Position numbers and translations under genes: made by a program. A model generated the notes under the pieces. That model did no database searches. It was not told the origin of the DNA and saw only the letters and a program-made list of their open reading frames with translations. Below, piece by piece: positions 12,018 to 60,052 of a DNA stretch of 64,000 nt. Source of the stretch: Escherichia coli (GTDB lineage: Bacteria; Pseudomonadota; Gammaproteobacteria; Enterobacterales; Enterobacteriaceae); the NCBI RefSeq assembly GCF_024298765.1, contig NZ_CP101210.1; one strand, 5' to 3'. Position 1 is the first letter of the stretch, and each line of letters begins with the position of its first letter.

Positions 12018-15000
12018 ATGAATAAGAAATTTAAATATAAGAAATCGCTTTTAGCGGCTATTTTGAGCGCAACCCTGTTAGCCGGTTGTGATGGCGGTGG
12101 CTCCGGATCTTCCTCCGATACGCCGCCTGTAGATTCTGGAACAGGGTCTTTGCCGGAAGTGAAACCTGATCCAACACCAAACCCGGAGCCGACGCCTGAG
12201 CCAACGCCGGACCCAGAACCAACGCCGGAACCGACACCTGATCCAGAGCCAGAACCGGAGCCAGAACCTGTTCCTACGAAAACGGGTTATCTGACCCTGG
12301 GCGGAAGCCAGCGGGTAACTGGTGCTACCTGTAATGGTGAATCCAGCGATGGCTTTACATTTACACCTGGTGAGGACGTTACTTGCGTGGCGGGTAACAC
12401 GACAATTGCCACCTTCAACACTCAGTCAGAAGCTGCGCGTAGCCTGCGTGCGGTTGAAAAAGTGTCGTTTAGTCTTGAGGACGCGCAAGAACTGGCGGCT
12501 TCCGATGACAAGAAAAGCAATGCGCTCTCGCTAGTCACCTCCATGAACAGTTGCCCGGCGGATACAGAACAGGTGTGCCTGGAGTTCTCCTCAGTGATCG
12601 AGAGTAAACGCTTCGACTCGCTGTATAAGCAAATCGATCTGGCACCGGAAGAGTTCAAAAAGCTGGTCAATGAAGAGGTGGAAAACAATGCCGCGACCGA
12701 TAAAGCGCCATCCACTCATACTTCACCGGTCGTGCCCGTCACCACTCCGGGAACAAAACCGGATCTGAACGCTTCCTTCGTGTCGGCTAACGCGGAACAG
12801 TTTTATCAGTATCAACCTACGGAAATCATTCTCTCTGAAGGCCGACTGGTAGATAGCATGGGCAATGGTGTGGTTGGCGTAAATTACTACACCAGCTCAG
12901 GCCGTGGCGTAACTGGCGAAAACGGCAAATTCAACTTCAGCTGGGGCGAAACCATCTCCTTTGGTATCGACACCTTTGAACTGGGCTCAGTACGCGGCAA
13001 TAAGTCGACCATTGCGTTGACTGAGCTGGGCGACGAAGTTCGCGGCGCGAATATTGATCAGCTTATTCATCGCTATTCGACGACCGGGCAAAATAATACC
13101 CGTGTTGTGCCGGACGATGTACGCAAGGTCTTTGCCGAATATCCCAACGTGATCAACGAGATTATCAATCTCTCGTTATCCAACGGTGCGACGCTGGATG
13201 AAGGTGAGCAAGTTGTTAATCTGCCAAACGAATTTATTGAGCAGTTTAAGACGGGTCAAGCCAAAGAGATCGATACCGCGATTTGTGCGAAAACCGACGG
13301 TTGTAACGAGGCTCGCTGGTTCTCGCTGACGACGCGCAATGTTAATGACGGCCAGATTCAGGGCGTTATCAACAAGCTGTGGGGTGTGGATACAAGTTAC
13401 AAATCTGTCAGCAAGTTCCACGTCTTCCATGACTCTACCAACTTCTATGGCAGCACCGGTAACGCGCGCGGTCAGGCGGTGGTAAATATCTCCAACTCGG
13501 CATTACCGATTCTGATGGCGCGTAATGATAAAAACTACTGGCTGGCGTTTGGCGAAAAACGCGCCTGGGATAAAAATGAGCTGGCGTACATTACGGAAGC
13601 GCCTTCCATTGTGCAGCCAGAGAACGTTACGCGCGATACTGCGACTTTCAACCTGCCGTTTATTTCGCTGGGGCAAGTCGGTGAAGGCAAACTGATGGTT
13701 ATCGGTAACCCGCACTACAACAGCATCCTGCGTTGCCCGAACGGTTACAGTTGGGGCGGTGGTGTTAATAGTAAAGGTGAGTGTACGCTCAGCGGTGATT
13801 CTGATGACATGAAGCACTTTATGCAGAACGTCCTGCGCTACTTGTCAAATGACATCTGGCAGCCAAATACCAAGAGCATCATGACTGTCGGCACCAACCT
13901 GGAGAACGTTTATTTCAAAAAAGCGGGCCAGGTATTGGGAAATAGTGCACCATTTGCTTTCCATGAGGATTTCACTGGTATCACGGTTAAACAGTTGACC
14001 AGCTATGGCGATCTGAATCCGGAAGAGATTCCGTTGCTGATCCTCAACGGCTTTGAATATGTGACTCAGTGGTCTGGCGATCCCTATGCTGTGCCTCTGC
14101 GTGCAGATACCAGCAAACCGAAGCTGACTCAGCAGGATGTGACCGATCTGATCGCTTATCTGAACAAAGGTGGCTCGGTGCTGATCATGGAAAACGTGAT
14201 GAGCAATCTTAAGGAAGAGAGCGCGTCCAGTTTTGTGCGTCTGCTGGATGCCGCGGGTCTGTCAATGGCTCTGAACAAATCGGTGGTGAACAACGATCCG
14301 CAAGGGTATCCGGATCGCGTTCGTCAGCGTCGCGCGACTGGCATTTGGGTTTATGAACGTTATCCTGCTGCAGACGGCGCGCAACCGCCGTACACCATCG
14401 ACCCAAATACAGGGGAAGTGACCTGGAAATACCAGCAAGACAACAAGCCTGATGACAAGCCGAAACTGGAAGTTGCGAGCTGGCAGGAGGAAGTTGAGGG
14501 CAAACAGGTAACGCGTTATGCCTTTATTGATGAAGCGGAATACACAACAGAAGAATCTCTGGAAGCGGCAAAGGCAAAAATCTTTGAGAAGTTTCCTGGG
14601 TTACAGGAGTGTAAGGACTCGACTTACCATTACGAGATTAACTGTTTGGAGCGCCGCCCAGGCACGGATGTTCCGGTAACAGGTGGCATGTATGTTCCGC
14701 GCTATACGCAACTGAATCTTGACGCCGACACCGCGAAAGCGATGGTGCAGGCGGCGGATTTAGGCACCAACATTCAGCGCCTGTATCAGCATGAGCTTTA
14801 TTTCCGTACCAAAGGCAGTAAAGGTGAGCGTCTGAACAGTGTTGATCTGGAACGTCTGTACCAGAACATGTCGGTCTGGCTGTGGAACGATACGAAATAT
14901 CGTTACGAAGAGGGCAAGGAAGATGAGCTGGGCTTTAAAACGTTCACCGAGTTCCTGAACTGCTACGCCAATGATGCCTATGCAGGCGGCACCAAGTGCT

Positions 15001-16574
15001 CTGCAGATCTGAAAAAATCGCTGGTCGATAACAACATGATCTACGGTGACGGTAGCAGCAAAGCGGGCATGATGAACCCAAGCTATCCGCTCAACTATAT
15101 GGAAAAACCGCTGACGCGTCTGATGCTGGGCCGTTCCTGGTGGGATCTGAACATTAAGGTTGATGTGGAGAAGTACCCAGGATCCGTATCGGCAAAGGGT
15201 GAGAGCGTTACGGAAAACATCAGCCTGTACTCGAATCCGACCAAATGGTTTGCGGGTAACATGCAGTCAACCGGCCTGTGGGCACCGGCCCAGCAGGACG
15301 TCACCATTAAGTCTTCGGCGTCAGTCCCAGTGACTGTTACCGTGGCGCTGGCTGACGACCTGACTGGACGTGAGAAGCATGAAGTTGCGCTGAACCGTCC
15401 GCCAAGAGTGACTAAAACGTATACTCTGGAGGCTAACGGTGAAGTGACCTTCAAGGTGCCTTATGGTGGTCTGATTTATATCAAGGGCGACAGTAAGGAT
15501 GATGTTTCTGCTAACTTCACCTTTACCGGTGTAGTAAAAGCGCCGTTCTATAAAGACGGCGAATGGAAAAACGATCTGGACTCACCGGCGCCGCTGGGCG
15601 AGCTGGAGTCTGCGTCGTTCGTCTATACCACGCCGAAGAAGAACCTTGAGGCCAGCAATTTCACTGGTGGTGTAGCAGAATTCGCTAAAGATCTGGATAC
15701 CTTTGCCAGCTCGATGAATGATTTCTACGGTCGTAATGATGAAGACGGTAAGCACCGGATGTTTACCTATAAAAACTTGACGGGCCACAAGCATCGTTTC
15801 ACCAACGATGTGCAGATCTCCATCGGTGATGCGCATTCGGGTTATCCGGTAATGAACAGCAGCTTCTCGACGAACAGCACCACGCTGCCGACGACGCCGC
15901 TGAACGACTGGCTGATCTGGCACGAAGTTGGTCACAACGCCGCCGAAACGCCGCTGACTGTTCCTGGCGCAACTGAAGTAGCGAACAACGTGCTGGCGCT
16001 GTACATGCAGGATCGCTATCTCGGCAAGATGAACCGTGTCGCTGACGATATTACTGTCGCGCCGGAATATCTGGAGGAGAGCAACGGTCAGGCATGGGCG
16101 CGCGGCGGTGCGGGTGACCGTCTGCTGATGTACGCACAGTTGAAGGAGTGGGCAGAGGAAAACTTTGATATCACGAAGTGGTATCCAGATGGCAAGCTGC
16201 CAGCGTTCTACAGCGAGCGTGAAGGGATGAAAGGCTGGAACCTGTTCCAGTTGATGCATCGTAAAGCACGCGGCGATGATGTTGGTAACAGCACCTTTGG
16301 TGGCAAGAATTACTGTGCTGAATCCAATGGTAACGCTGCCGACACGCTGATGCTGTGTGCCTCCTGGGTCGCCCAGACGGATCTTTCGGAGTTCTTTAAG
16401 AAATGGAATCCGGGTGCAAGTGCTTACCAGTTGCCGGGAGCAACGGAGATGAGTTTCCAGGGCGGTGTGAGCTCTTCGGCTTACAGCACGCTGGCGTCAC
16501 TCAAGCTGCCGAAACCGGAAAAAGGGCCGGAAACCATTAACAAGGTTACCGAGCATAAGATGTCTGCCGAGTAA
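12018..16574 (+). CDS. yghJ: SslE/YghJ secreted lipoprotein, M60-like zinc metalloprotease (mucinase)
   Basis: ~1518 aa; signal peptide with lipobox LLAGC; Pro/Glu-rich PEPTPEP repeats; HEVGH zinc-binding motif ([14 protein letters not shown]); immediately upstream of pppA and the T2SS genes. ATG at 12018 chosen over the TTG at 12000. Confidence 0.9.
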
Positions 16575-16715
16575 GCCTGTAGGCCGGATAAGGCGTTCAC
16601 GCCGCATCCGGCATGATATAAGGCGCATCGGGTCAACACATATGCCCGATGCGCCAGCTTATCGGGCCTGGAGGAAAGCCATATGGCATACACCCGCAGG
16701 CCCGCATCCGGCAAG
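16575..16715. repeat. REP/BIME-type extragenic palindromic repeats
   Basis: gcctgtaggccggataaggcgttcacgccgcatccggca and further gccgcatccggc / cccgcatccggc palindromic units between yghJ and pppA. Confidence 0.6.
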
Positions 16716-16737
16716 TTACAACAAACAACCTTTAACC

Positions 16738-17547
16738 ATGCTTTTTGATGTTTTTCAGCAATACCCCGCGGCGATGCCCATACTGGCAACCGTCGGAGGA
16801 TTGATCATCGGCAGTTTTTTGAATGTGGTGATTTGGCGTTACCCCATCATGCTGCGCCAACAAATGGCGGAGTTTCATGGTGAAACGCCGAGTACGCAGT
16901 CAAAAATAAGCCTGGCGCTGCCACGCTCGCACTGTCCGCATTGCCAGCAGACTATCCGCGTTCGTGACAATATTCCGCTGCTCTCCTGGTTGATGCTCAA
17001 AGGGCGCTGCCGCGACTGTCAGGCGAAAATCAGCAAGCGTTATCCGCTGGTGGAGTTATTGACGGCACTCGCTTTTTTGCTGGCGAGCCTGGTGTGGCCG
17101 GAAAGTGGATGGGCGCTGGCGGTGATGATATTATCCGCCTGGCTGATTGCCGCGAGCGTCATTGACCTCGATAACCAATGGCTGCCCGATGTTTTTACTC
17201 AGGGCGTATTGTGGACGGGACTAATTGCGGCATGGGCGCAGCAGAGTCCGCTCACGCTACAAGACGCAGTCACCGGCGTACTGGTGGGATTTATCACTTT
17301 TTACTCCCTGCGCTGGATAGCCGGAATAGTTCTGCGTAAAGAAGCATTAGGCATGGGCGATGTATTACTCTTCGCCGCTTTAGGTGGCTGGGTGGGGGCG
17401 TTATCACTGCCCAACGTTGCTTTAATCGCCTCATGCTGCGGCCTGATATATGCCGTTATTACAAAAAGAGGATCAACCACACTGCCTTTTGGACCGTGTT
17501 TAAGTCTGGGCGGTATAGCAACACTTTATCTACAGGCATTGTTTTAA
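16738..17547 (+). CDS. pppA: Prepilin peptidase (A24 family)
   Basis: 269 aa from [36 protein letters not shown]...; CxxC...CxxC zinc motif (CPHCQQ...CRDCQA) and polytopic membrane body. The longer ORF from 16642 would run through the REP repeats. Confidence 0.85.
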
Positions 17548-17612
17548 TGATAACAACGTCATTATCAAAGTGACATTTTAACTCTTATTAATAACCTTAG
17601 AGATTATTTACC

Positions 17613-18023
17613 ATGTCGATAAAACAAATGCCAGGGAGGGTATTAATATCGCTATTGTTGAGCGTTACAGGATTATTAAGTGGCTGCGCCAGCCATAATG
17701 AAAACGCCAGTTTACTGGCGAAAAAACAGGCGCAAAATATCAGCCAAAACCTGCCGATTAAATCTGCGGGATATACCTTAGTGCTGGCGCAAAGTAGTGG
17801 CACGACGGTAAAAATGACCATTATCAGCGAATCGGGTACTCAGACCACGCAGACACCTGACGCCTTTTTAACCAGCTATCAACGACAAATGTGCGCTGAC
17901 CCAACGGTGAAATTAATGATCACCGAGGGAATTAATTACAGCATAACGATTAATGATACACGTACAGGTAACCAGTATCAGCGGAAACTGGATCGTACCA
18001 CCTGTGGAATAGTCAAAGCATAA
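17613..18023 (+). CDS. yghG: T2SS pilotin lipoprotein (YghG/GspS-beta-like)
   Basis: 136 aa, signal peptide with lipobox LLSGC, positioned between pppA and gspC. Confidence 0.75.
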   Translation: MSIKQMPGRVLISLLLSVTGLLSGCASHNENASLLAKKQAQNISQNLPIKSAGYTLVLAQSSGTTVKMTIISESGTQTTQTPDAFLTSYQRQMCADPTVKLMITEGINYSITINDTRTGNQYQRKLDRTTCGIVKA

Positions 18024-18157
18024 CGTCGGGTAGATATAAATTGGCGCGGGTTGTTTTTCGTGACGCACGAATTTATCTCATTCAATGGCTGACTAAAATT
18101 CGTCACATTCTTAGCCAGAGACAATCTCTTAATACAGACAAAGAGCATCTGCGAAAA

Positions 18158-19000
18158 ATGGTGCGCGGGATGTTCTGGCTCATGCTGCTTATTATTTCTG
18201 CAAAAATGGCGTATTCACTCTGGCGCTATTTCTCCTTTTCTGCGGAATATACGGTGGTTTCCTCATCGGCGAATAAACCGCTCCGTGCGGATGCAAAACC
18301 GTTCGATAAAAATGACGTGCAATTAGTCAGCCAACAAAACTGGTTTGGCAAATATCAACCCGTCGCCGCACCGGTAAAACAACCTGAATCTGCGCCTGTG
18401 GCAGAAACGCGTCTTAATGTGGTGCTGCGTGGGATCGCCTTTGGTGCCAGACCCGGCGCGGTGATTGAAGAAGGCGGCAAACAGCAGGTCTATTTGCAGG
18501 GTGAACGGCTTGGCTCTCACAACGCAGTGATTGAGGAAATCAACCGCGACCATGTGATGCTGCGCTATCAGGGGAAAATGGAACGTCTGAGTCTGGCAGA
18601 GGAGGAACGCCCCCCTGTGGCGGTCACCAGCAAAAAAGCCGTCAGCGACGAAGCAAAGCAAGCTGTTGCTGAGCCTGCTGCCAGTGCGCCAGTTGAGATC
18701 CCGGCTGCCGTGCGTCAGGCACTGGCGAAAGATCCGCAGAAAATTTTTAACTATATCCAGCTTACGCCTGTGCGTAAGGAGGGAATTGTCGGTTATGCAG
18801 TGAAGCCGGGGGCAGATCGTTCTCTGTTCGATGCCAGCGGTTTCAGGGAAGGCGATATCGCCATTGCACTAAATCAGCAGGATTTCACTGATCCACGAGC
18901 AATGATTGCTCTGATGCGGCAGTTACCTTCAATGGATTCCATTCAACTTACGGTTTTACGCAAGGGTGCGCGCTACGACATTTCCATCGCACTGCGCTAA
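18158..19000 (+). CDS. gspC: Type II secretion system protein C
   Basis: N-terminal TM helix (MFWLMLLIISAKMAYSLW) and C-terminal PDZ-like region; start uncertain (TTG at 18041 versus ATG at 18158). Confidence 0.7.
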   Translation: MVRGMFWLMLLIISAKMAYSLWRYFSFSAEYTVVSSSANKPLRADAKPFDKNDVQLVSQQNWFGKYQPVAAPVKQPESAPVAETRLNVVLRGIAFGARPGAVIEEGGKQQVYLQGERLGSHNAVIEEINRDHVMLRYQGKMERLSLAEEERPPVAVTSKKAVSDEAKQAVAEPAASAPVEIPAAVRQALAKDPQKIFNYIQLTPVRKEGIVGYAVKPGADRSLFDASGFREGDIAIALNQQDFTDPRAMIALMRQLPSMDSIQLTVLRKGARYDISIALR

Positions 19001-19029
19001 CCGCATTTAATCCAGGAGAATCATTCATC

Positions 19030-21090
19030 GTGTTTTGGCGTGATATGACGTTGTCTATCTGGCGTAAGAAGACAACTGGCCTCAAAACAAAAAAGCGTTT
19101 ACTGCCGCTGATGCTGGCAGCGGCATTGTGTAGTTCACCGGTCTGGGCGGAAGAAGCCACTTTCACCGCTAATTTTAAAGATACTGACCTGAAATCGTTC
19201 ATCGAAACCGTCGGCGCTAACCTTAATAAAACCATCATTATGGGGCCGGGCGTTCAGGGGAAAGTGAGTATTCGCACTATGACTCCGCTCAATGAACGCC
19301 AGTATTACCAGTTATTCCTTAACCTGCTGGAAGCACAGGGGTATGCGGTCGTACCGATGGAAAACGACGTGCTGAAGGTGGTGAAATCAAGCGCCGCGAA
19401 AGTCGAGCCGCTGCCGCTGGTCGGTGAAGGCAGCGACAACTACGCGGGCGATGAAATGGTTACCAAAGTCGTGCCGGTACGCAATGTGTCGGTACGCGAG
19501 CTGGCACCGATTCTGCGCCAGATGATTGACAGCGCAGGCTCAGGCAACGTTGTTAATTACGATCCCTCCAACGTGATTATGCTTACCGGACGCGCCTCCG
19601 TTGTGGAGCGCCTGACGGAAGTGATCCAGCGCGTGGATCACGCGGGTAATCGCACCGAAGAGGTGATCCCGCTGGATAACGCCTCAGCCTCGGAAATTGC
19701 CCGCGTGCTGGAAAGCCTGACCAAAAACAGCGGCGAGAACCAGCCAGCAACGCTGAAGTCTCAAATTGTCGCCGATGAACGCACCAACAGCGTGATTGTC
19801 AGTGGTGACCCCGCCACGCGAGACAAAATGCGCCGCCTGATCCGTCGGCTGGATTCAGAAATGGAGCGCAGCGGCAACAGCCAGGTGTTCTATCTCAAAT
19901 ACAGCAAAGCGGAAGATCTGGTCGATGTGCTGAAGCAGGTCAGCGGTACGCTCACGGCGGCTAAAGAAGAGGCGGAAGGCACGGTCGGTAGCGGGCGTGA
20001 GGTTGTCTCCATCGCTGCCAGCAAACACAGTAATGCCCTGATTGTTACTGCGCCGCAGGACATTATGCAGTCGCTGCAAAGCGTGATTGAACAACTGGAT
20101 ATTCGCCGTGCTCAGGTGCATGTCGAGGCGTTAATCGTGGAAGTTGCCGAAGGTAGCAATATCAATTTCGGCGTGCAGTGGGGGTCAAAAGATGCTGGAT
20201 TAATGCAGTTTGCCAACGGTACGCAAATCCCTATTGGTACGCTGGGGGCAGCGATTTCTGCAGCCAAGCCGCAGAAAGGTTCCACGGTGATCAGCGAAAA
20301 CGGTGCTACCACCATAAATCCGGATACTAACGGCGATCTCTCCACGCTCGCTCAGCTCCTTTCTGGCTTTAGTGGTACGGCGGTTGGCGTGGTGAAAGGC
20401 GACTGGATGGCGCTGGTACAGGCGGTCAAAAACGACTCCAGCTCGAACGTGCTCTCCACGCCGAGTATCACCACGCTGGACAACCAGGAAGCCTTCTTCA
20501 TGGTGGGCCAGGACGTTCCGGTATTAACCGGCTCTACCGTTGGTTCCAATAACAGCAATCCTTTCAATACGGTAGAGAGGAAAAAAGTCGGCATCATGCT
20601 GAAAGTCACGCCGCAGATTAACGAAGGTAACGCGGTACAGATGGTGATTGAGCAGGAAGTCTCGAAAGTGGAAGGGCAGACCAGCCTCGATGTCGTGTTT
20701 GGCGAGCGCAAACTGAAAACCACCGTGCTGGCTAACGATGGTGAGCTGATCGTGCTTGGCGGTCTGATGGACGACCAGGCGGGAGAAAGCGTGGCGAAAG
20801 TGCCGCTGCTGGGTGATATCCCGTTGATTGGTAACCTGTTTAAATCGACGGCGGATAAAAAAGAAAAACGTAACCTGATGGTGTTTATCCGCCCGACCAT
20901 TTTGCGTGACGGTATGGCGGCAGACGGCGTGTCGCAGCGCAAATATAACTACATGCGCGCTGAGCAAATCTACCGCGATGAGCAAGGCTTAACCCTGATG
21001 CCGCACACCGCGCAGCCGATATTGCCAGCGCAAAATCAGGCCTTACCGCCGGAAGTACGCGCGTTCCTCAATGCCGGGAGAACGCGTTAA
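19030..21090 (+). CDS. gspD: Type II secretion system secretin
   Basis: 686 aa with signal peptide, N-domains and secretin C-domain ([16 protein letters not shown]); GTG start with upstream AGGAG. Confidence 0.9.
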
Positions 21091-22583
21091 TGGTGCCTGT
21101 AGCACAGGAAACCACCGCTAACACCGTGCGTCTGCCCTACAGTTTCAGCCGTCGGTTTGGCCTGGTGGCATGGTGCGAAGCGTCGCTGGAGATCCTCCAT
21201 GTTCATCCGTTGTCGCTCTCTGTTTTACAGGAGCTACAGCGGGGGCTGAATGCGCCCTTTACACTGCGGCAAATCGACGAGGCTGAATTTGAACAGCGGC
21301 TGAATGCGGTCTGGCAGCGGGACTCTTCCGAAGCTCGCCAGCTGATGGAAGATCTCGGTTCCGCCGAGGACTTTTTTACCCTCGCTGAAGAACTGCCGGA
21401 AACGGAAGATCTGCTGGAAAGTGACGACGATGCGCCGATCATCAAACTGATCAACGCCATGCTGGCAGAGGCAATCAAAGAAGGCGCTTCGGATATCCAC
21501 ATCGAGACGTTTGAAAAGAGTCTGGTGATCCGTTTTCGTGTTGACGGCACATTACATGAAATGTTGCGCCCCGGTCGTAAACTGGCCTCGCTGCTGGTCT
21601 CGCGTATCAAGGTGATGGCGCGGCTGGATATCGCCGAAAAGCGCGTACCGCAGGATGGCCGTATTGCGCTGCTGCTGGGCGGTCGGGCGATTGACGTCCG
21701 TGTATCTACCATGCCTTCCGCCTGGGGGGAACGGGTGGTGCTGCGACTGCTGGACAAAAACCAGGCTCGCCTGACGCTGGAGCGTCTGGGTTTAAGTCTT
21801 GAACTGACTGCGCAGTTGCGCCAGCTGTTACACAAACCGCACGGCATTTTTCTGGTGACGGGGCCGACCGGTTCCGGCAAAAGCACCACGCTGTACGCTG
21901 GATTGCAGGAGCTGAACAACCACTCGCGTAACATTCTCACGGTTGAAGACCCTATCGAATACATGATTGAAGGGATCGGTCAGACGCAGGTTAACACCCG
22001 CGTCGGCATGACATTCGCCCGTGGCCTGCGCGCGATTTTGCGTCAGGACCCGGATGTGGTGATGGTCGGTGAAATCCGCGATACCGAAACCGCAGAAATC
22101 GCTGTTCAGGCTTCACTGACCGGACACCTGGTACTTTCCACGCTGCATACCAACACAGCGGTGGGGGCGATCACGCGTTTGCAGGATATGGGCGTGGAGC
22201 CTTTCCTGCTCTCTTCCAGTCTGACGGGCGTGATGGCGCAGCGACTGGTTCGCACGCTGTGTCCCGATTGCCGCCAGTCCGTGCCTGCCACTGACGAAGA
22301 AAAACGCCTGCTGGGGATTACCGATGCGCGTACCGTCACGCTGTACCATCCGCAGGGCTGCCCCGCCTGTAATCACAAAGGTTTTCGCGGACGCACCGCT
22401 ATCCATGAACTGATTGTGGTGGACGCCACATTGCGTGATTTGATCCACCGTCAGGCCGGGGAACTGGAGCTGGAACGTTATGTCCGGCAACACTCTGCGG
22501 GTATCCGCAGCAACGGCATTGAGAAAGTGCTCGCCGGAGAAACCTCTCTCGATGAAGTTCTGCGGGTAACCATGGAGGCGTAA
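21090..22583 (+). CDS. gspE: Type II secretion ATPase
   Basis: 497 aa; Walker [10 protein letters not shown]; tetracysteine motif CPDC...CPAC; start overlaps gspD stop. Confidence 0.95.
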
Positions 22584-23806
22584 TGGCACTGTTTTACTAT
22601 CAGGCGCTGGAGCGTAATGGTCGCAAAACCAAAGGCATGATTGAGGCGGATTCCGCGCGTCATGCCCGTCAATTGTTGCGTGGTAAAGACCTCATTCCCG
22701 TGCACATTGAAGCCCGGATGAATGCATCGGCAGGGGGAATGTTGCAGCGTCGGCGGCACGCACATCGTCGCGTGGCGGCGGCAGATCTTGCGCTGTTCAC
22801 TCGTCAACTGGCAACGCTGGTGCAGGCAGCAATGCCGCTGGAAACCTGCTTACAGGCGGTCAGTGAGCAAAGCGAAAAACTGCATGTAAAAAGCCTCGGA
22901 ATGGCGCTGCGCAGCCGGATTCAGGAAGGTTATACCCTGTCGGACAGCCTGCGCGAACATCCCCGCGTCTTTGACTCCCTGTTTTGTTCGATGGTCGCTG
23001 CCGGAGAAAAATCCGGACATCTCGACGTGGTGCTCAATCGCCTGGCGGATTACACCGAACAGCGGCAGCGTCTGAAATCACGCCTGCTGCAGGCCATGCT
23101 CTACCCGCTGGTACTGCTGGTGGTGGCAACGGGCGTGGTCACTATTTTGCTGACGGCAGTAGTGCCGAAAATTATCGAACAGTTTGATCATCTCGGACAC
23201 GCGCTGCCCGCCTCCACCCGAATGCTCATCGCCATGAGCGACACGTTACAGACCAGCGGCGTGTACTGGCTGGCGGGTTTGCTGGGGCTTCTGGTGCTGG
23301 GGCAACGGCTACTCAAAAATCCTGCGATGCGCCTGCGCTGGGATAAAACCTTGCTGCGTTTGCCCGTGACGGGGCGTGTTGCGCGCGGGCTGAATACGGC
23401 GCGTTTTTCCCGCACGTTAAGCATCCTCACCGCCAGCAGTGTTCCGCTACTGGAAGGCATTCAGACCGCTGCCGCCGTGTCGGCAAATCGCTATGTCGAA
23501 CAACAACTGCTGCTGGCGGCAGATCGCGTCCGCGAAGGAAGCAGTCTGCGCGCCGCGCTGGCGGAGTTGCGGCTGTTCCCGCCAATGATGCTGTACATGA
23601 TCGCTTCCGGCGAACAGAGCGGCGAACTGGAAACCATGCTTGAGCAAGCCGCAGTTAACCAGGAACGAGAATTTGATACCCAGGTGGGGCTGGCGTTGGG
23701 GCTGTTTGAGCCTGCGCTGGTGGTGATGATGGCGGGCGTGGTGCTGTTTATTGTCATCGCCATCCTCGAGCCGATGCTGCAACTGAATAATATGGTTGGA
23801 ATGTAA
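22583..23806 (+). CDS. gspF: Type II secretion inner-membrane platform protein
   Basis: 407 aa, GspF-type repeat domains; overlaps gspE stop. Confidence 0.9.
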   Translation: MALFYYQALERNGRKTKGMIEADSARHARQLLRGKDLIPVHIEARMNASAGGMLQRRRHAHRRVAAADLALFTRQLATLVQAAMPLETCLQAVSEQSEKLHVKSLGMALRSRIQEGYTLSDSLREHPRVFDSLFCSMVAAGEKSGHLDVVLNRLADYTEQRQRLKSRLLQAMLYPLVLLVVATGVVTILLTAVVPKIIEQFDHLGHALPASTRMLIAMSDTLQTSGVYWLAGLLGLLVLGQRLLKNPAMRLRWDKTLLRLPVTGRVARGLNTARFSRTLSILTASSVPLLEGIQTAAAVSANRYVEQQLLLAADRVREGSSLRAALAELRLFPPMMLYMIASGEQSGELETMLEQAAVNQEREFDTQVGLALGLFEPALVVMMAGVVLFIVIAILEPMLQLNNMVGM

Positions 23807-23822
23807 TTTACGGAGTTATCAC

Positions 23823-24278
23823 ATGAATTCGTTATCCCGCACACAAAAACCACGGGCAGGTTTTACCCTGCTGGAAGTGATGGTGGTGATTGTTATTCTT
23901 GGCGTCCTGGCAAGTCTGGTGGTGCCTAACCTGTTGGGCAACAAAGAGAAAGCGGATCGGCAAAAAGCCATCAGCGATATCGTGGCGCTGGAGAATGCGC
24001 TGGATATGTACCGACTGGATAACGGGCGTTATCCGACCACAGAACAGGGGCTTGAGGCGCTGATCCAGCAACCGGCCAATATGGCGGATTCCCGTAACTA
24101 CCGTACCGGTGGATACATTAAACGACTGCCAAAAGATCCGTGGGGCAATGATTATCAGTATCTCAGTCCGGGTGAAAAAGGACTGTTTGATGTTTACACC
24201 CTGGGGGCGGATGGTCAGGAAAACGGGGAAGGCGCTGGCGCAGATATCGGTAACTGGAATTTGCAGGAGTTTCAGTAA
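23823..24278 (+). CDS. gspG: Major pseudopilin
   Basis: Prepilin leader and processing site in MNSLSRTQKPRAGFTLLEVMVVIVILGVLASL; GGAG SD before ATG 23823. Confidence 0.9.
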   Translation: MNSLSRTQKPRAGFTLLEVMVVIVILGVLASLVVPNLLGNKEKADRQKAISDIVALENALDMYRLDNGRYPTTEQGLEALIQQPANMADSRNYRTGGYIKRLPKDPWGNDYQYLSPGEKGLFDVYTLGADGQENGEGAGADIGNWNLQEFQ

Positions 24279-24281
24279 GCA

Positions 24282-24845
24282 GTGCCTGAACGCGGATTCA
24301 CTCTTCTGGAAATCATGCTGGTGATTTTCCTTATCGGCCTTGCCAGTGCGGGCGTGGTACAGACGTTTGCGACCGATTCTGAATCGCCCGCGAAAAAAGC
24401 GGCGCAGGATTTTCTGACTCGCTTTGCGCAGTTTAAAGACAGGGCAGTGATCGAAGGGCAGACACTCGGTGTACTAATCGACCCGCCGGGATACCAGTTT
24501 ATGCAGCGTCGTCAGGGGCAGTGGTTGCCCGTTTCTGCGACCCGGTTATCGGCACAGGTTACGGTGCCGAAACAGGTGCAGATGCTGTTACAACCCGGAA
24601 GTGATATCTGGCAGAAGGAATATGCGCTGGAGCTGCAGCGTCGCCGCCTGACGCTGCACGATATTGAACTGGAGCTGCAAAAAGAGGCGAAAAAGAAGAC
24701 ACCGCAGATCCGTTTTTCGCCTTTTGAACCCGCCACGCCGTTTACGCTGCGCTTCTACTCGGCGGCGCAAAACGCATGTTGGGCGGTAAAGCTGGCGCAC
24801 AATGGCGTGTTATCCCTCAATCAATGTGATGAGAGGATGCCATGA
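24282..24845 (+). CDS. gspH: Minor pseudopilin
   Basis: GFTLLEIMLVIFLIGL prepilin N-terminus; GTG start. Confidence 0.8.
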   Translation: MPERGFTLLEIMLVIFLIGLASAGVVQTFATDSESPAKKAAQDFLTRFAQFKDRAVIEGQTLGVLIDPPGYQFMQRRQGQWLPVSATRLSAQVTVPKQVQMLLQPGSDIWQKEYALELQRRRLTLHDIELELQKEAKKKTPQIRFSPFEPATPFTLRFYSAAQNACWAVKLAHNGVLSLNQCDERMP

Positions 24846-25213
24846 AGCGCGGATTTACCTTGCTGGAAGTGATGCTCGCGCTGGCGATTTTTGCGTTGGC
24901 CGCCATGGCGGTGTTACAGATTGCCAGCGGTGCGCTGAGTAATCAGCAGATTCTTGAGGAGAAAACGGTAGCGGGCTGGGTAGCTGAAAACCAGACCGCG
25001 CTGCTTTACCTGATGACCCGTGAACAACGAGCGGTCAGGCACCAGGGCGAGAGTGATATGGCAGGAAGCCGCTGGTACTGGCGAACCACACCGCTGAGTA
25101 CAGGCAACGCGCTGCTCCAGGCGGTGGATATTGAAGTCAGCCTTCACGAAGACTTTTCGCCGGTGATTCAGTCACGACGCGCCTGGTTTAGCGCCGTGGG
25201 AGGCCAACAGTGA
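24842..25213 (+). CDS. gspI: Minor pseudopilin
   Basis: MKRGFTLLEVMLALAIFALA prepilin N-terminus; overlaps gspH stop. Confidence 0.8.
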   Translation: MKRGFTLLEVMLALAIFALAAMAVLQIASGALSNQQILEEKTVAGWVAENQTALLYLMTREQRAVRHQGESDMAGSRWYWRTTPLSTGNALLQAVDIEVSLHEDFSPVIQSRRAWFSAVGGQQ

Positions 25214-25815
25214 GAAGGACTCGCGCTGGTTTCACGTTACTGGAAATACTGGTGGCGATAGCCATTTTTGCCTCGCTGGCACTGATGGCGCAGCAGGTGA
25301 CTAACGGCGTCGCACGCGTGAATAGCGCCGTCGCCGATCACGATCAAAAACTAAACCTCATGCAGCAAACGATGAGTTTTCTGACCCACGATCTGACCCA
25401 AATAATGCCGCGTCCGGTAAGAAGCGATCAGGGCCAGCGTGAACCAGCGTTACTGGCTGGCCCTGGCGTGCTGGCGTCTGAGAGTGGAGGAATGCGTTTT
25501 GTGCGCGGCGGTGTGGTTAACCCGTTGATGCGTCTGCCACGCAGCAATCTGCTCACCGTCGGTTACCGCATTCATGACGGCTATCTCGAACGGTTAGCCT
25601 GGCCGCTGACCGACGCAGCAGGCAGCGTGAAGCCGACAATGCAAAAGTTGATTCCGGCGGATTCGCTCCGCTTGCAGTTCTACGACGGCACGCGCTGGCA
25701 GGAGAGCTGGTCGTCAGTACAGGCGATCCCTGTGGCAGTGCGCATGACCCTGCATTCGCCGCAATGGGGCGAGATTGAACGCATCTGGTTGTTACGCGGG
25801 CCGCAATTATCATGA
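25210..25815 (+). CDS. gspJ: Minor pseudopilin
   Basis: RAGFTLLEILVAIAIFASLA prepilin N-terminus; GTG start overlapping gspI stop. Confidence 0.8.
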   Translation: MRRTRAGFTLLEILVAIAIFASLALMAQQVTNGVARVNSAVADHDQKLNLMQQTMSFLTHDLTQIMPRPVRSDQGQREPALLAGPGVLASESGGMRFVRGGVVNPLMRLPRSNLLTVGYRIHDGYLERLAWPLTDAAGSVKPTMQKLIPADSLRLQFYDGTRWQESWSSVQAIPVAVRMTLHSPQWGEIERIWLLRGPQLS

Positions 25816-26789
25816 TCACCTCACCACCAAAACGCGGAATGGCACTGGTCGTGGTGCTGGTATTGCTGGCGGTTATGATGCTGGTGACCATCACGCTTTC
25901 CGGGCGAATGCAGCAACAACTTGGGCGAACGCGCAGCCAGCAGGAGTACCAGCAGGCGCTGTGGTACAGCGCCAGTGCGGAAAGCCTGGCGTTGAGCGCA
26001 CTCAGTCTGAGCCTGAAAAATGAAAAGCGCGTGCATCTGGCGCAGCCGTGGGCTTCCGGCCCTCGTTTTTTCCCACTGCCGCAGGGGCAAATTGCCGTCA
26101 CCCTGCGTGACGCCCAGGCCTGCTTTAACCTGAATGCCCTCGCTCAGCCGACAACGGCGTCGCGTCCTATCGCGGTACAACAACTGATTGCCCTGATCTC
26201 GCGCCTGGATGTGCCTGCTTATCGGGCCGAACTGATAGCCGAAAGCCTGTGGGAGTTTATTGACGAGGACCGCAGCGTGCAGACGCGTCTGGGGCGTGAA
26301 GACAGCGAGTATCTCGCCCGCTCGGTGCCGTTCTACGCCGCCAATCAACCGCTGGCCGATATCAGTGAGATGCGCGTGGTACAGGGAATGGACGCCGGAC
26401 TTTATCAAAAACTGAAACCGCTGGTCTGTGCGCTGCCGATGACCCGCCAGCAAATCAACATCAATACCTTAGACGTCACGCAAAGTGTGATTCTTGAGGC
26501 GCTGTTTGACCCGTGGTTAAGCCCTGTTCAGGCGCGGGCGTTATTACAACAACGTCCGGCGAAGGGCTGGGAAGATGTCGATCAGTTTCTTGCTCAGCCG
26601 CTACTTGCAGACGTCGATGAGCGTACTAAAAAACAGCTAAAAACCATCCTGAGCGTGGACAGCAATTACTTCTGGCTGCGTTCAGATATCACCGTGAATG
26701 AGATTGAACTGACGATGAATTCGTTAATTGTCCGCATGGGCCCACAACACTTTTCTGTTCTCTGGCATCAGACAGGAGAAAGTGAGTGA
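25812..26789 (+). CDS. gspK: Minor pseudopilin
   Basis: 325 aa, N-terminal hydrophobic segment GMALVVVLVLLAVMMLV; overlaps gspJ. Confidence 0.8.
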   Translation: MITSPPKRGMALVVVLVLLAVMMLVTITLSGRMQQQLGRTRSQQEYQQALWYSASAESLALSALSLSLKNEKRVHLAQPWASGPRFFPLPQGQIAVTLRDAQACFNLNALAQPTTASRPIAVQQLIALISRLDVPAYRAELIAESLWEFIDEDRSVQTRLGREDSEYLARSVPFYAANQPLADISEMRVVQGMDAGLYQKLKPLVCALPMTRQQININTLDVTQSVILEALFDPWLSPVQARALLQQRPAKGWEDVDQFLAQPLLADVDERTKKQLKTILSVDSNYFWLRSDITVNEIELTMNSLIVRMGPQHFSVLWHQTGESE

Positions 26790-27964
26790 GTTCCATGCTT
26801 GAGATTTTTTTCCCGCTTTGCGCCGCTGATCCCATCCGTTGGCAGCGCCATACACCCGACGTGGAGCACGGTATCTGGCCTGACGTTGCTGACGAACGTC
26901 TCCAGCAATGGCTGCAAACTGATGCGATTCGACTCTACATTCCCGGCGAATGGATCAGCGTCTGGCAGGTTGAACTGCCTGATGTGCCCCGCAAGCAGAT
27001 ACCGACGATTCTGCCCGCCTTGCTGGAAGAAGAGCTGAACCAGGATATCGATGAACTGCATTTCGCCCCGTTGAAAATCGACCAGCAACTGGCAACCGTA
27101 GCTGTGATTCACCAGCAGCATATGCGCAACATTGCGCAGTGGTTGCAGGCAAACGGCATCGCCCGCGCTACCGTCGCGCCGGACTGGATGTCCATTCCTT
27201 GTGGGTTTATGGCTGGCGATGCGCAACGGGTTATCTGCCGTATCGATGAATGCCGGGGATGGAGCGCCGGGCGGGCGCTGGCTCCGGTCATGTTCCGCGC
27301 ACAGCTCAATGAGCAGAATTTACCGATTTCACTAACTGTGGTCGGCATTGCACCGGAAGAACTGTCTGCATGGGCTGGTGCGGACGCCGAACGCCTGACC
27401 GTTACGGCTCTGCCCGCCATTACCACTTATGGCGAACCGGAAGGGAACCTGCTAACAGGGCCGTGGCAGCCTCGTGTTAGCTACCGAAAACAGTGGGCGC
27501 GCTGGCGGGTGATGATTCTGCCGATATTGCTGATTCTGGTTGCGCTGGTAGTGGAACGGGGCGTGACGTTATGGAGCGTCAGCGAACAGGTGGCGCAAAG
27601 CCGCACCCAGGCGGAGAAACAGTTCTTAACGCTATTCCCGGAGCAGAAGCGGATTGTGAATTTACGCTCGCAGGTGACGATGGCGCTGAAAAAATATCGC
27701 CCACAGGCTGATGATACCGATCTGCTTGCCGAGTTGTCTGCGATCGCCAGTACCCTGAAATCCGCATCACTTTCCGACATTGAGATGCGTGGTTTCACCT
27801 TTGATCAAAAACGCCAGACGCTTCACCTCCAGCTACGGGCTGCGAACTTTGCCAGCTTCGACAAACTGCGTAGCGCACTGGCGGTAGATTATGTTGTGCA
27901 ACAGGACGCGTTACAGAAAGAGGGTGATGCGGTTTCCGGCGGCGTAACGTTGCGGAGGAAATAA
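26786..27964 (+). CDS. gspL: Type II secretion system protein L
   Basis: 392 aa with cytoplasmic domain, single TM (VMILPILLILVALVV) and periplasmic domain; start uncertain (GTG 26786 or ATG 26795). Confidence 0.8.
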   Translation: MSSMLEIFFPLCAADPIRWQRHTPDVEHGIWPDVADERLQQWLQTDAIRLYIPGEWISVWQVELPDVPRKQIPTILPALLEEELNQDIDELHFAPLKIDQQLATVAVIHQQHMRNIAQWLQANGIARATVAPDWMSIPCGFMAGDAQRVICRIDECRGWSAGRALAPVMFRAQLNEQNLPISLTVVGIAPEELSAWAGADAERLTVTALPAITTYGEPEGNLLTGPWQPRVSYRKQWARWRVMILPILLILVALVVERGVTLWSVSEQVAQSRTQAEKQFLTLFPEQKRIVNLRSQVTMALKKYRPQADDTDLLAELSAIASTLKSASLSDIEMRGFTFDQKRQTLHLQLRAANFASFDKLRSALAVDYVVQQDALQKEGDAVSGGVTLRRK

Positions 27965-27965
27965 C

Positions 27966-28502
27966 ATGTTACGCGATAAATTTATTCACTATTTTCAGCA
28001 ATGGCGTGAACGCCAGTTAAGCCGTGGCGAACACTGGCTGACACAACACCTGGCGGGGCGTTCGCCGCGTGAAAAGGGCATGTTACTGGCAGCGGCGGTG
28101 TTTCTGTTTAGCGCCGGATATTACGTCCTCATCTGGCAGCCTTTGAGCGAACGGATTGAGCAACAGGAGACGATGTTGCAACAGATGGTGGCGATGAACG
28201 CGCGACTGAAGAGCGCCGCGCCGGATATTATTGCGGCGCGAAAATCCGCCACAACAACGCCTGCACAGGTATCGCGGGTCATCAGCGATAGTGCTTCTGC
28301 GCACTCAGTGGTTATCAAGCGGATAGCCGAGCGCGGGGAGAATATTCAGGTCTGGATAGATCCGGTGGTGTTTAATGACCTGCTGAACTGGTTAAAAGCA
28401 CTGGATGAAAAGTATGCGCTGCGGGTGACACAAATTGATGTCAGCGCAGGTGAGAAGCCTGGAATGGTGAATGTGCAGCGGCTGGAATTTGGACGGGGAT
28501 AA
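27966..28502 (+). CDS. gspM: Type II secretion system protein M
   Basis: 178 aa with single N-terminal TM (GMLLAAAVFLFSAGYYVLIW); last gene of the cluster. Confidence 0.8.
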   Translation: MLRDKFIHYFQQWRERQLSRGEHWLTQHLAGRSPREKGMLLAAAVFLFSAGYYVLIWQPLSERIEQQETMLQQMVAMNARLKSAAPDIIAARKSATTTPAQVSRVISDSASAHSVVIKRIAERGENIQVWIDPVVFNDLLNWLKALDEKYALRVTQIDVSAGEKPGMVNVQRLEFGRG

Positions 28503-28613
28503 AGTATCAGGAGATTAATATCAATAAAATTACTCTCGTTAACGTGGCGAGAGTAATTCCCCCAGACTTTATAAGCTAATTTTTTTCGTGAAGGTTATTG
28601 TCAGAGCCAAAAG

Positions 28614-28640
28614 CAAAAACCCGCCTTGTGGCGGGTTCTT
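28614..28640 (-). terminator. Rho-independent terminator-like hairpin
   Basis: Minus-strand reading cccgccacaaggcggg stem-loop followed by TTTTTGCTTTTGG; lies just 3' of the tRNA-Phe remnant and downstream of gspM. Confidence 0.5.
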
Positions 28641-28649
28641 AAGAATTAG

Positions 28650-28668
28650 TGGTGCCCGGACTCGGAAT
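28650..28668 (-). other. tRNA-Phe 3'-end remnant (19 nt, island attachment-site repeat)
   Basis: TGGTGCCCGGACTCGGAAT is the reverse complement of the 3' end of E. coli tRNA-Phe (…ATTCCGAGTCCGGGCACCA); sequence diverges immediately after, so no tRNA body is present here. Confidence 0.7.
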
Positions 28669-28915
28669 GAAACTGGTTATATAACCAATTGTTTTGTATC
28701 GACTGTTTTATCCTTGTTCTTTTTGAGGCCACCAATGAGGCCCCCATGTGCAATTCGAATTCTTTTGACGCTATAATCCCTCTTTCTTGTGGTTTGTTGT
28801 AATCATTTTGTCTGGTTCGATATGCTGAATCGCGGAATCGAAGTGACAACAAAATACAGAGATTTATAAAATACCTGGCTACCTGTGTTAGGGAGCGTTA
28901 ACGCACAGATTTTGT

Positions 28916-29242
28916 TTATGGCTGCCAGAAATGATCTGATGGTTTGTCGTCTGGCTCTGCAAGTACCCTGTTGATATCCCGGGAACCATGAACGATACGT
29001 TCGATACGAACTTCAGTATCCAGTACCCTGAACAGCAGAAGGTAACGACCATACGAACAACCTCTGATCCCAGCCCCTAACTCGGGTCTTTCTCTGTAGA
29101 GTACTGGCGATTCGGCTATCAACAGACATTGTTGGTAAAGCTCTTCGGTAAAACTGATTGCACGGACAGGATTATCCTGAGCGATCCAGTCACCTATAGC
29201 TTCAAGATCGTGTTCTGCTAATGGTGAAACAGTCAGTTTCAT
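28916..29242 (-). CDS. parE: ParE/RelE-family type II toxin
   Basis: 108 aa MKLTVSPLAEHDLEAIGDWIAQDNPVRAISF...RIVHGSRD; overlaps upstream antitoxin gene by 4 nt. Confidence 0.75.
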   Translation of the reverse strand: MKLTVSPLAEHDLEAIGDWIAQDNPVRAISFTEELYQQCLLIAESPVLYRERPELGAGIRGCSYGRYLLLFRVLDTEVRIERIVHGSRDINRVLAEPDDKPSDHFWQP

Positions 29243-29502
29243 ATTGGCTGTTCACCTTCTGCCATCTTTTTGTATTTGTGCGTCAGTCGCCCGAATACCT
29301 CTTCAGCACTTTTACTTTCACCGCTGTTGATGCCTGCGGCCACGGCGCTCTGGAGTGATTCAAGCTTTATCTGCTGTTCCCGTTCTTCCAGAGCACGAAG
29401 TCCGGCACGAATGACTTCACTTGTATTGTTGTACCGACCACTTTCTATTTGTTCGCGGATAAACGTTTCAAAGTAAGGACTGAGGGATACACTGGTAGGC
29501 AT
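29239..29502 (-). CDS. parD: ParD-family (RHH) type II antitoxin
   Basis: 87 aa MPTSVSLSPYFETFIREQIESGRYNNTSEVIRAGLRALEEREQ..., ribbon-helix-helix antitoxin pattern. Confidence 0.75.
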   Translation of the reverse strand: MPTSVSLSPYFETFIREQIESGRYNNTSEVIRAGLRALEEREQQIKLESLQSAVAAGINSGESKSAEEVFGRLTHKYKKMAEGEQPI

Positions 29503-29573
29503 GGTTATTTTCTCGCCGATTGATTACTATCAATTAATAATAGTTAATATTCGCGAATTGTAAAATACCTCTT

Positions 29574-30440
29574 TTATGCCTTGCGGCTTTTGTTCACTGT
29601 GCTTGCCAGGGCTTCCGGGTAGTGTCTGGCAATAATATCATTAAGCCTGTCAACCAGCTCTGGTTTCCTGAACGTGATGTGCGCGGAGCCCTTCTTAAAG
29701 TATCTGATGCTGAACATCTCATCTTCATAGTCCTCTTTACCCTGAACAGACTGGATGTGATCATCCAGATGAATGGTGATGTTTTCCCGGTTGTCGGGGA
29801 TCGGTTTGCCGCTGAACAGGTGCAGCATTCTTTCCAGATCGGCAAGTCGATCGGCCTGTTGTCCGGTGATAAGATGAAACCCCCACCGGTCCCACCTCAC
29901 CAGATTGTTGACGATAATTTTACTGCCAAATTTGCAGGGTGAATTGGTTTTGTAATTCCAGCTCAGTCCTCTGAAAACGTTGAGCACCCCTCGCTCAAAC
30001 ACTTCATCTTTGTTCTGGTGCAGTTGTTCAAACGTGCTCAGGATATTTGCTTCGCTGATTTCCGGAAAATTATCGTACTCCAGTGACCGGTACCATGTAT
30101 CACGGGCTTGTGCATCCATTAATGACAGCATCCCTGAACGTTGCATCAGATCACGCCAGATTTCGCGGTCAAGGTTGCGGGTGATGGCTTTCATTGCGGT
30201 TTCCGGTTTTTCCATCAGCCAGCAACCGCAGCGAAAATCCTGTTTCATGGCCCAGTCCAGTGCAGTTTTACCTCCGATGCTTTCCGTCAGCACCGAGATT
30301 TCTGCCAGTTGCCGGATAAGTGTGTCGATTTGCAGCAGCGCACTCTTTCGTACAGCCAGAATGTGGCGGATGCTGGTTGAGCCGATAACGTCCGTATGCC
30401 CGTTGACCACTTCCGGACGGGGGGCTGTGATTTCAGACAT
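29574..30440 (-). CDS. Hypothetical protein (DUF4942-like, CP4-type island cargo)
   Basis: 288-aa ORF with no recognisable catalytic motif; family assignment from recollection of genes adjacent to cbtA/cbeA modules. Confidence 0.45.
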   Translation of the reverse strand: MSEITAPRPEVVNGHTDVIGSTSIRHILAVRKSALLQIDTLIRQLAEISVLTESIGGKTALDWAMKQDFRCGCWLMEKPETAMKAITRNLDREIWRDLMQRSGMLSLMDAQARDTWYRSLEYDNFPEISEANILSTFEQLHQNKDEVFERGVLNVFRGLSWNYKTNSPCKFGSKIIVNNLVRWDRWGFHLITGQQADRLADLERMLHLFSGKPIPDNRENITIHLDDHIQSVQGKEDYEDEMFSIRYFKKGSAHITFRKPELVDRLNDIIARHYPEALASTVNKSRKA

Positions 30441-30524
30441 AATCGATATTCCTTTTTGCAGATAAATGAAAACGCCAGCCCTGTTCAGGCTGGCGTCAGT
30501 GGAATGAAGTCTGGTGAGTAAGAC

Positions 30525-30722
30525 TCACCGGTTCTGTTGCAGAAGCTGCAACTGGCGCAGGATACGGATATCCTCCCTGGCCTGTTCGATACAGGGCAAC
30601 AGTGCTGCCGAATCCGTTCTATCCTCATCGTTGTCAAAGATAATTCCCGATTCGCAGTCGATATTGTCCTGTAGCCACGCAATCAGAATATCCAGTGCGG
30701 TTTCCGTGGTTAATGATTTCAT
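30525..30722 (-). CDS. Small hypothetical protein (CP4-like island)
   Basis: 65 aa from MKSLTTETALDILIAWLQDNIDCESGIIFDNDEDRTDSAALLPCIEQ...; resembles small conserved ORFs near cbtA modules. Confidence 0.4.
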   Translation of the reverse strand: MKSLTTETALDILIAWLQDNIDCESGIIFDNDEDRTDSAALLPCIEQAREDIRILRQLQLLQQNR

Positions 30723-50543: not shown

Positions 50544-50578
50544 TAGCCCATTATCAGTAACATATGAAGGTTGATTCA

Positions 50579-54986: not shown

Positions 54987-57729
<2,743 letters not shown>

Positions 57730-60041: not shown

Positions 60042-60052
60042 AAAGCCTCCAA

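Follow-up and report, generated by a model that had tools for sequence, protein, structure and literature searches.

A gsp gene cluster that very probably forms a complete T2SS-beta operon in a non-K-12 Escherichia coli

Results

Gene content and reading frames

Is the gsp cluster in this stretch of E. coli DNA a complete type II secretion system (T2SS), what known system is it, and what could it export? We find that positions 12018-28502 of the window (the whole stretch of 64,000 nucleotides analysed) hold 14 genes on the plus strand, all in one direction, running from sslE, pppA and yghG (gspS-beta/aspS) through gspC to gspM. They lie between glcA (9851-11533, upstream of sslE) and a pheV-associated island, in synteny with MG1655. 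We conclude with high confidence that the region is a complete chromosomal T2SS-beta ("Vibrio-type") operon, sslE-pppA-yghG-gspCDEFGHIJKLM, in its ancestral form. The genes, their predicted products and the matches behind each assignment are as follows.

sslE (yghJ), 12018-16574, plus strand: secreted/surface lipoprotein M60 zinc metalloprotease (mucinase), the system's substrate (NCBIfam NF037973 SslE)
pppA, 16738-17547, plus strand: prepilin peptidase (A24 family) that processes pseudopilins (Pfam A24_N_bact and Peptidase_A24; PGAP on identical DNA)
yghG (gspS-beta/aspS), 17613-18023, plus strand: outer-membrane lipoprotein pilotin for the secretin (Pfam T2SSS_2; PDB 5zdh_P)
gspC, 18041-19000, plus strand: inner-membrane protein linking assembly platform to secretin (NCBIfam NF007242, 727 bits, 1-319 of 319)
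gspD, 19030-21090, plus strand: Vibrio-type outer-membrane secretin (TIGR02517, 552.5 bits; PDB 5zdh_A)
gspE, 21090-22583, plus strand: cytoplasmic secretion ATPase (TIGR02533, 705 bits; motifs)
gspF, 22583-23806, plus strand: polytopic inner-membrane platform protein (TIGR02120, 491 bits, 4-405 of 407)
gspG, 23823-24278, plus strand: major pseudopilin, start codon as in PGAP (TIGR01710, 192 bits; prepilin motif)
gspH, 24282-24845, plus strand: minor pseudopilin, GFTLLE (TIGR01708, 188 bits; motif)
gspI, 24842-25213, plus strand: minor pseudopilin, GFTLLE (TIGR01707, 90 bits; motif)
gspJ, 25210-25815, plus strand: minor pseudopilin, GFTLLE (TIGR01711, 172 bits; motif)
gspK, 25812-26789, plus strand: minor pseudopilin at the pseudopilus tip (NF037980, 286 bits; PDB 3ci0_K, 642 bits)
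gspL, 26786-27964, plus strand: inner-membrane protein that docks GspE (TIGR01709, 182 bits, 10-385 of 392)
gspM (yghD), 27966-28502, plus strand: inner-membrane partner of GspL (NF007274, 404 bits, 1-178 of 178; Pfam T2SSM)
Segment that E. coli K-12 MG1655 lacks, 19000-27001, no strand: 8,002 bp (blastn of MG1655 and a K-12-like record against the window; junction sequences)

The first-pass annotation had described a full gsp gene set downstream of yghJ/pppA, in overlapping or closely spaced frames and without frameshifts, and both statements hold: all genes are present on the plus strand and match curated families over their full length, each of the 14 has a length divisible by 3, and none contains an internal stop. 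The interval 19030-27964, which it labelled gspC-gspM, spans gspD through gspL exactly, start to stop, but leaves gspC (ending at 19000) and gspM (beginning at 27966) outside. Between gspC and gspM, neighbouring genes are spaced by -4 to +29 nt; overlaps of the ATGA/GTGA type occur at gspH/I, I/J, J/K and K/L, and 1-nt overlaps at D/E and E/F. Over 11900-28700 the window is 100% identical in DNA sequence to NZ_CP070071.1, in which PGAP calls every gene intact, without a pseudogene flag.

Components of the secretion machine

All parts of a type II secretion system (Gsp) are found, namely secretin GspD, ATPase GspE, platform proteins GspC/F/L/M, pseudopilins GspG-K and a prepilin peptidase, together with the marks of the T2SS-beta or Vibrio type: an AspS/YghG-type pilotin within the operon, an SslE/AcfD-family gene at its head and the glcA-pheV position. 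Along its full length, each protein from GspC to GspL matches its own NCBIfam equivalog model with a score above the curated threshold, SslE and GspM (YghD) match theirs full-length above cut-offs, and PppA, YghG and GspM have Pfam family matches. By group, the platform proteins GspC, F, L and M are full-length and above cut-offs against NF007242, TIGR02120, TIGR01709 and NF007274, and the pseudopilins GspG-K exceed the cut-offs of TIGR01710, TIGR01708, TIGR01707, TIGR01711 and NF037980.

The secretin scores 552.5 bits against TIGR02517 (cut-off 351), and mature GspD is identical to PDB 5zdh_A at 641 of 646 residues, leaving 5 substitutions; we take 5ZDH to be the ETEC GspD-AspS complex, and 5ZDH and 3CI0 both to derive from ETEC H10407. 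GspD also matches 5wq8 strongly (732 bits), presumably the V. cholerae secretin structure. GspE (705 bits against TIGR02533, cut-off 630) carries Walker A GPTGSGKS at residue 258, an Asp-box-like VVMVGEIRD at 323, and two CxxC pairs of the zinc-binding kind, CPDC at 391 and CPAC at 424. The prepilin cleavage motif G/FTLLE is present in GspG (at residue 13), GspH, GspI and GspJ; GspK has the GspK-typical GMALVV, without Glu at +5.

At the head of the operon, SslE matches NF037973 with 3474.6 bits (cut-off 3000) over 1-1518 of 1518, and PDB 23px_A with 3188 bits over its full length. Its frame is intact; residues 21-24 form the lipobox LAGC, HEVGH is at residue 1302, and the Pfam domains are Peptidase_M60 and DUF4092. 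YghG has its own lipobox (LSGC, residues 22-25) and matches PDB 5zdh_P over residues 25-136 with 232 bits.

The segment lost from K-12

The first-pass annotation also stated that a deletion in K-12 takes gspD through gspK and truncates gspL, the gspD-K deletion being described in the literature (PMC3707838), and our alignment of MG1655 (NC_000913.3, 3108000-3122000) to the window bears this out and maps the loss to 8,002 bp. The alignment falls into two blocks, the first ending at window position 18999 and the second resuming at 27000, and a K-12-like record has the same breakpoints; from these it follows that gspD to gspK are missing in K-12, together with the first 72 codons of gspL (its 5' 216 nt) and the gspC stop codon. 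Loss of that stop gives YghF 12 extra out-of-frame residues. The junction shows a 2-bp TA microhomology, at window 18998-18999 and 27000-27001. K-12 most probably represents the derived state, the 8,002 bp having been lost by illegitimate recombination. What remains in MG1655, yghJ-pppA-yghG-yghF-yghE-yghD, sits at the same position with the same flanks (glcA upstream, the pheV side downstream), and the retained parts are ~93-94% identical in nucleotide sequence to the window.

Flanking DNA and distribution

In K-12, pheV directly follows yghD, whereas in the window only ~19 nt of the pheV 3' end are found downstream of gspM (at ~28650-28668), followed by a genomic island. A tRNA scan of the window finds no intact tRNA, so that pheV itself lies beyond it, with only the 3' fragment inside. 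The annotation of FDAARGOS_1287 was rejected as a guide to the DNA downstream of gspM: its 100% match covers only 11900-28700, 87 mismatches occur over 27915-30715, and the arrangement differs beyond 30715. That DNA is described instead via strain CT282 and direct Pfam scans. In CT282, a close relative, the gsp genes are identical and sslE is a pseudogene.

At least 80% of gspC-M is found in 3,242 of 5,426 complete E. coli genomes (~60%). Among the matches listed, at least 34 complete genomes have a gspC-M that is 100% identical, and in all 60 the identity is at least 99.95%; the sources are human, poultry, pig, dog (one) and water. Such identity across isolates from varied sources argues for purifying selection. 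Chance can be set aside, given 16.5 kb of conserved coding sequence shared by thousands of genomes. B strains carry the extra T2SS as well (PMC3446290).

The gene order and content are the same as in the T2SS-beta of ETEC H10407 (yghJ-pppA-yghG-gspCDEFGHIJKLM), for which PDB sequences served as proxies for the genome: YghG, GspK and GspD match 5ZDH chain P, 3CI0_K and 5ZDH chain A, and the differences from that system are a few amino-acid substitutions. Unlike in ETEC, SslE is the sole visible substrate, the window holding no LT toxin genes. EPEC E2348/69 and E. coli W have the same operon next to pheV with allelic variation only, a likeness drawn from publications. The Eps T2SS of Vibrio cholerae, with AcfD and AspS, belongs to the same architecture class (Vibrio-type secretin S-domain, AspS pilotin, AcfD/SslE-family substrate; PMC3542185), but in another genus, with much lower identity and different substrates (cholera toxin and others).

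Discussion

Alternative readings

Gsp gene names and family-level HMM matches are shared with the other T2SSs of E. coli, T2SS-alpha (gspA-O, chitinase-secreting) and the plasmid-borne etp, yet there is next to no chance that the cluster is either of these. Its place between glcA and the pheV site is exactly that of yghJ-pppA-yghGFED in K-12; sslE and the AspS-type pilotin gene yghG stand directly upstream, with no gspA/B/O; and the secretin hardly differs from the ETEC GspD bound to AspS in 5ZDH. Synteny, the type of pilotin and the identity of the secretin lead us to reject both. It is also very improbable that intact frames conceal a machine disabled by missense changes or by loss of a component encoded elsewhere. 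Intact frames are no proof of activity, mature GspD differs from the ETEC structure by those 5 substitutions, and the sslE pseudogene of CT282, next to identical gsp genes, shows decay within the lineage; but sslE is intact in the window, the catalytic and processing motifs are all conserved, all models are matched full-length above curated cut-offs, and the operon brings its own peptidase, pilotin, substrate and C-M core.

An unlikely alternative is an operon that is intact and transcriptionally silent under ordinary conditions through repression by H-NS/StpA, cryptic like the T2SS-alpha gsp operon of K-12. The operon structure and its regulation by H-NS, StpA and Fis have been described: H-NS/StpA repress the sslE operon, and SslE levels vary strongly by strain, being low in EC958 and high in UTI89 at 37 °C (PMC5012682). 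The DNA upstream of sslE is AT-rich, as is typical of H-NS targets (GC 0.43 over 11000-11999, versus ~0.55 in the gsp genes). Against silence, the system is expressed and put to use at 37 °C in ETEC, EPEC, UPEC UTI89 and the non-pathogenic W, and selection seems to continue, given that gspC-M is 100% identical in many independent isolates. Silence would in any case concern regulation and leave the identity of the locus uncontradicted; intact reading frames indicate capacity, not expression. A simple sigma-70 consensus promoter and terminator scan of 11500-29000 gives no plus-strand promoter match upstream of sslE and 7 promoter-like matches in all, versus 13.5 expected from shuffles; it speaks neither for nor against the published sslE promoter.

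Secretion of SslE

With the locus read as T2SS-beta, we infer with good support, as the first-pass annotation did, that the intact operon would be able to export SslE. Experiments with the nearly identical orthologous loci of ETEC H10407, EPEC E2348/69 and E. coli W agree with this. In W, SslE secretion requires gspC-M and pppA (PMC3707838); in EPEC, AspS/YghG is the pilotin and SslE the main substrate (PMC3542185); and in EPEC E2348/69 and W alike, secretion depends on gspC-M, pppA and aspS/yghG (PMC3707838, PMC3542185). The steps of a likely mechanism can be taken from the literature on these orthologous loci. Transcription would start from the sslE promoter, under H-NS/StpA repression at low temperature and with Fis as activator. 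Sec would export SslE, with lipidation at the LAGC lipobox, while PppA would cleave and methylate the pseudopilins that carry GFTLLE, GspG to GspJ, and process GspK too. GspE, docked on GspL/M/F, would power assembly of the GspG pseudopilus beneath a GspK-I-J cap; GspC would join the platform to the GspD secretin, targeted to the outer membrane by the lipoprotein pilotin YghG/AspS. Folded SslE would then be driven across GspD to the surface of the cell and into the medium; there, the M60 metalloprotease domain of SslE may degrade mucin and promote biofilm maturation.

Published substrates of T2SS-beta include SslE (EPEC, E. coli W) and LT (ETEC). By analogy with LT export in ETEC, the intact system of this lineage might export further, uncharacterised substrates, possibly encoded in the adjacent pheV island; we regard this as quite improbable, as nothing in the sequence points to such a substrate and, to our knowledge, T2SS substrates are not predictable from sequence.

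Significance

The locus is already known: it is the published T2SS-beta, real but ordinary, since the well-known operon is carried by ~60% of E. coli strains sequenced. Its importance hardly goes beyond annotation, and the small addition made here, the exact K-12 junction with its 8,002 bp, TA microhomology and 12-residue GspC tail, refines the literature and is no discovery. What the locus shows is that the source of the window is an E. coli other than K-12 which retains the ancestral machinery for secreting SslE, a colonisation and biofilm factor and vaccine antigen.

An intact T2SS-beta operon

We find that window positions 11000-29000 hold an unbroken run of + strand reading frames in an ORF listing. 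With the start codons that PGAP assigned on identical DNA, these are:

Genes of the T2SS-beta operon
12018-16574, +, sslE (yghJ)
16738-17547, +, pppA
17613-18023, +, yghG (gspS-beta)
18041-19000, +, gspC
19030-21090, +, gspD
21090-22583, +, gspE
22583-23806, +, gspF
23823-24278, +, gspG
24282-24845, +, gspH
24842-25213, +, gspI
25210-25815, +, gspJ
25812-26789, +, gspK
26786-27964, +, gspL
27966-28502, +, gspM (yghD)

A script finds that each gene has a length that is a multiple of 3, a start and a stop codon and zero internal stops, and that the gaps from gspC to gspM range from a 4-nt overlap up to 29 nt. Because the frames are intact and tightly spaced, the first-pass annotation was correct in describing all T2SS genes as present, overlapping or closely spaced and free of frameshifts; the interval it labeled gspC-gspM, 19030-27964, runs from gspD to gspL, with gspC and gspM just outside. 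The observation as a whole is confirmed with this label corrected.

GspC, D, E, F, G, H, I, J, K and L match their own NCBIfam equivalog models nearly end to end and above curated cut-offs, as do SslE (3474.6 bits; cut-off 3000) and YghD/GspM (403.7 bits; cut-off 352). Domain matches comprise both A24 peptidase domains in PppA, T2SSS_2 pilotin in YghG, T2SSM in GspM and M60 peptidase in SslE, the last with an HEVGH motif. GspE carries Walker A (GPTGSGKS), VVMVGEIRD and two CxxC pairs, GspG to GspJ the prepilin motif G/FTLLE, and SslE and YghG the lipoboxes LAGC and LSGC, respectively.

Part of the locus is missing from K-12

In MG1655 (NC_000913.3, 3108000-3122000) the annotated order is yghJ, pppA, yghG, yghF (C-type), yghE (L-type), yghD (M-type), pheV. 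Comparing this stretch with the window by blastn yields a pair of collinear blocks: one ends at 18999 (92.7% identity) and the other starts at 27000 (94.4%). The breakpoints are identical in a K-12-like record. Given these breakpoints and the 2-bp TA common to both junctions (left, CTGCGC-TA-ACCGC; right, AGCAGA-TA-CCGAC), the segment absent from K-12 is 8,002 bp. With it go the last base of the gspC stop codon, the whole of gspD-gspK and the 5' 216 nt (72 codons) of gspL; because the stop codon is broken, K-12 YghF gains a tail of 12 out-of-frame residues (C-terminus ...ISIALR-YRLFCPPYWKKS, then stop). The first-pass statement on the K-12 deletion is right, in agreement with the literature (PMC3707838).

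Relation to characterized systems

Of the 646 positions of mature GspD (residues 41-686), all but 5 are shared with PDB 5ZDH chain A. YghG has its match in chain P of that entry, GspK in 3CI0 chain K and SslE in the 1520-residue chain of 23px; the PDB table supplies molecule names only. Both 5ZDH and 3CI0 come from ETEC H10407. Synteny, the AspS-type pilotin and the identity of the secretin rule out a T2SS-alpha or etp system.

In E. coli W, SslE is secreted via this T2SS-beta, gspC-M and pppA are required, and the genes adjoin pheV (PMC3707838). This Vibrio-type secretin has YghG/AspS as its pilotin, and in EPEC SslE is the main substrate (PMC3542185); B strains have this system as an additional T2SS (PMC3446290). 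The analysis establishes the gene set, the motifs and a near-identity to orthologues studied by experiment, and from the literature on these we infer that Sec would export SslE, which would be lipidated, and that PppA would process the pseudopilins. A GspG pseudopilus tipped by GspK-I-J would be driven by GspE on a GspL/M/F platform, itself coupled through GspC to the GspD secretin, which YghG/AspS would pilot to the outer membrane; SslE would then arrive at the surface and in the medium.

The sslE-to-gspM region is a single transcript, repressed by H-NS/StpA at low temperature and activated by Fis, and SslE levels vary among strains (PMC5012682). The operon could be intact yet silent under H-NS repression; this is a matter of regulation that leaves the identity of the locus unchanged. 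Cryptic missense inactivation is unlikely, as the motifs are conserved and identical alleles occur in many isolates.

Flanking regions

The glc operon (glcC, glcD, glcB, glcA) is located upstream and has an Rfam C0719 sRNA match (294 bits; 9551-9772, -) in its glcB-glcA spacer. The sslE-pppA spacer (16575-16737) consists of REP/BIME-like palindromes, e.g., GCCGGATAAGGCGTTCACGCCGCATCCGGC, and for this reason the 16.8-kb query matches at 30 sites in the median genome.

On the 3' side of gspM, homology to K-12 extends through ~19 nt of the pheV 3' end (tRNA-Phe; window ~28650-28668) and stops there; a genomic island comes next. Since a tRNA scan found no intact tRNA in the window, this fragment appears to be the distal direct repeat of a pheV island that has its tRNA and integrase end past 64000. 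The island is a mosaic of a ParDE toxin-antitoxin pair, a CP4-57-like module, a type I restriction-modification system and RhuM (together 42646-51613, +), a group II intron, remnants of IS elements and genes resembling nanXY. FDAARGOS_1287 (NZ_CP070071.1) matches the window perfectly across the T2SS but diverges here.

Features of the downstream island
28916-29502 and 29574-30440, -, ParE toxin/ParD antitoxin pair and DUF4942 protein, at the island edge
42646-44625, +, hsdM
44625-45911, +, hsdS
45911-49147, +, hsdR
49147-49701 and 49701-50543, +, two translationally coupled ORFs
50564-51613, +, RhuM-family gene
55460-57073, -, group II intron (reverse transcriptase/maturase ORF, 55550-57073; Rfam Intron_gpII domain, 55460-55546)
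58073-58188, -, Rfam ALIL pseudoknot (IS3-family frameshift signal)
58923-61330, -, GFO/IDH/MocA oxidoreductase and MFS transporter (nanY and nanX, 2,7-anhydro-sialic acid use, per the annotation of strain CT282)

Genes near ParDE/DUF4942 resemble a CP4-57-type module (CbtA/CbeA, RadC, antirestriction, DUF932) annotated in CT282. The two coupled ORFs have no Pfam matches; the pseudoknot indicates an IS3-type element or remnant. A separate group-II D1-D4 match lies on the opposite strand (62558-62697, +).

Prevalence and variation

When gspC-M is the query, 3,242 of the 5,426 complete E. coli genomes carry 80% or more of it; the intact locus is the majority state and K-12 the exception. Among the best 60 records, isolated from humans, poultry, pigs, dog and water, 34 score 19320 bits, the value for a full-length match with no mismatch; the others round to 100.0% identity but fall a few bits short of this, and so carry one to a few differences. 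With sslE in the query, identity is 90-95% for most genomes versus 95-99% for gspC-M alone, consistent with sslE (12018-16574) varying more within E. coli than the gsp genes (18041-28502) do. In CT282 (L004, NZ_CP095798.1; 1-75 and upstream), the gsp genes are 100% identical to the window and sslE carries a pseudogene flag (internal stop), so the substrate gene can degenerate in a strain whose machinery remains intact. The operon in the window is an already known, ordinary feature, and the analysis supports the first-pass reading that it would encode a functional T2SS able to export SslE.
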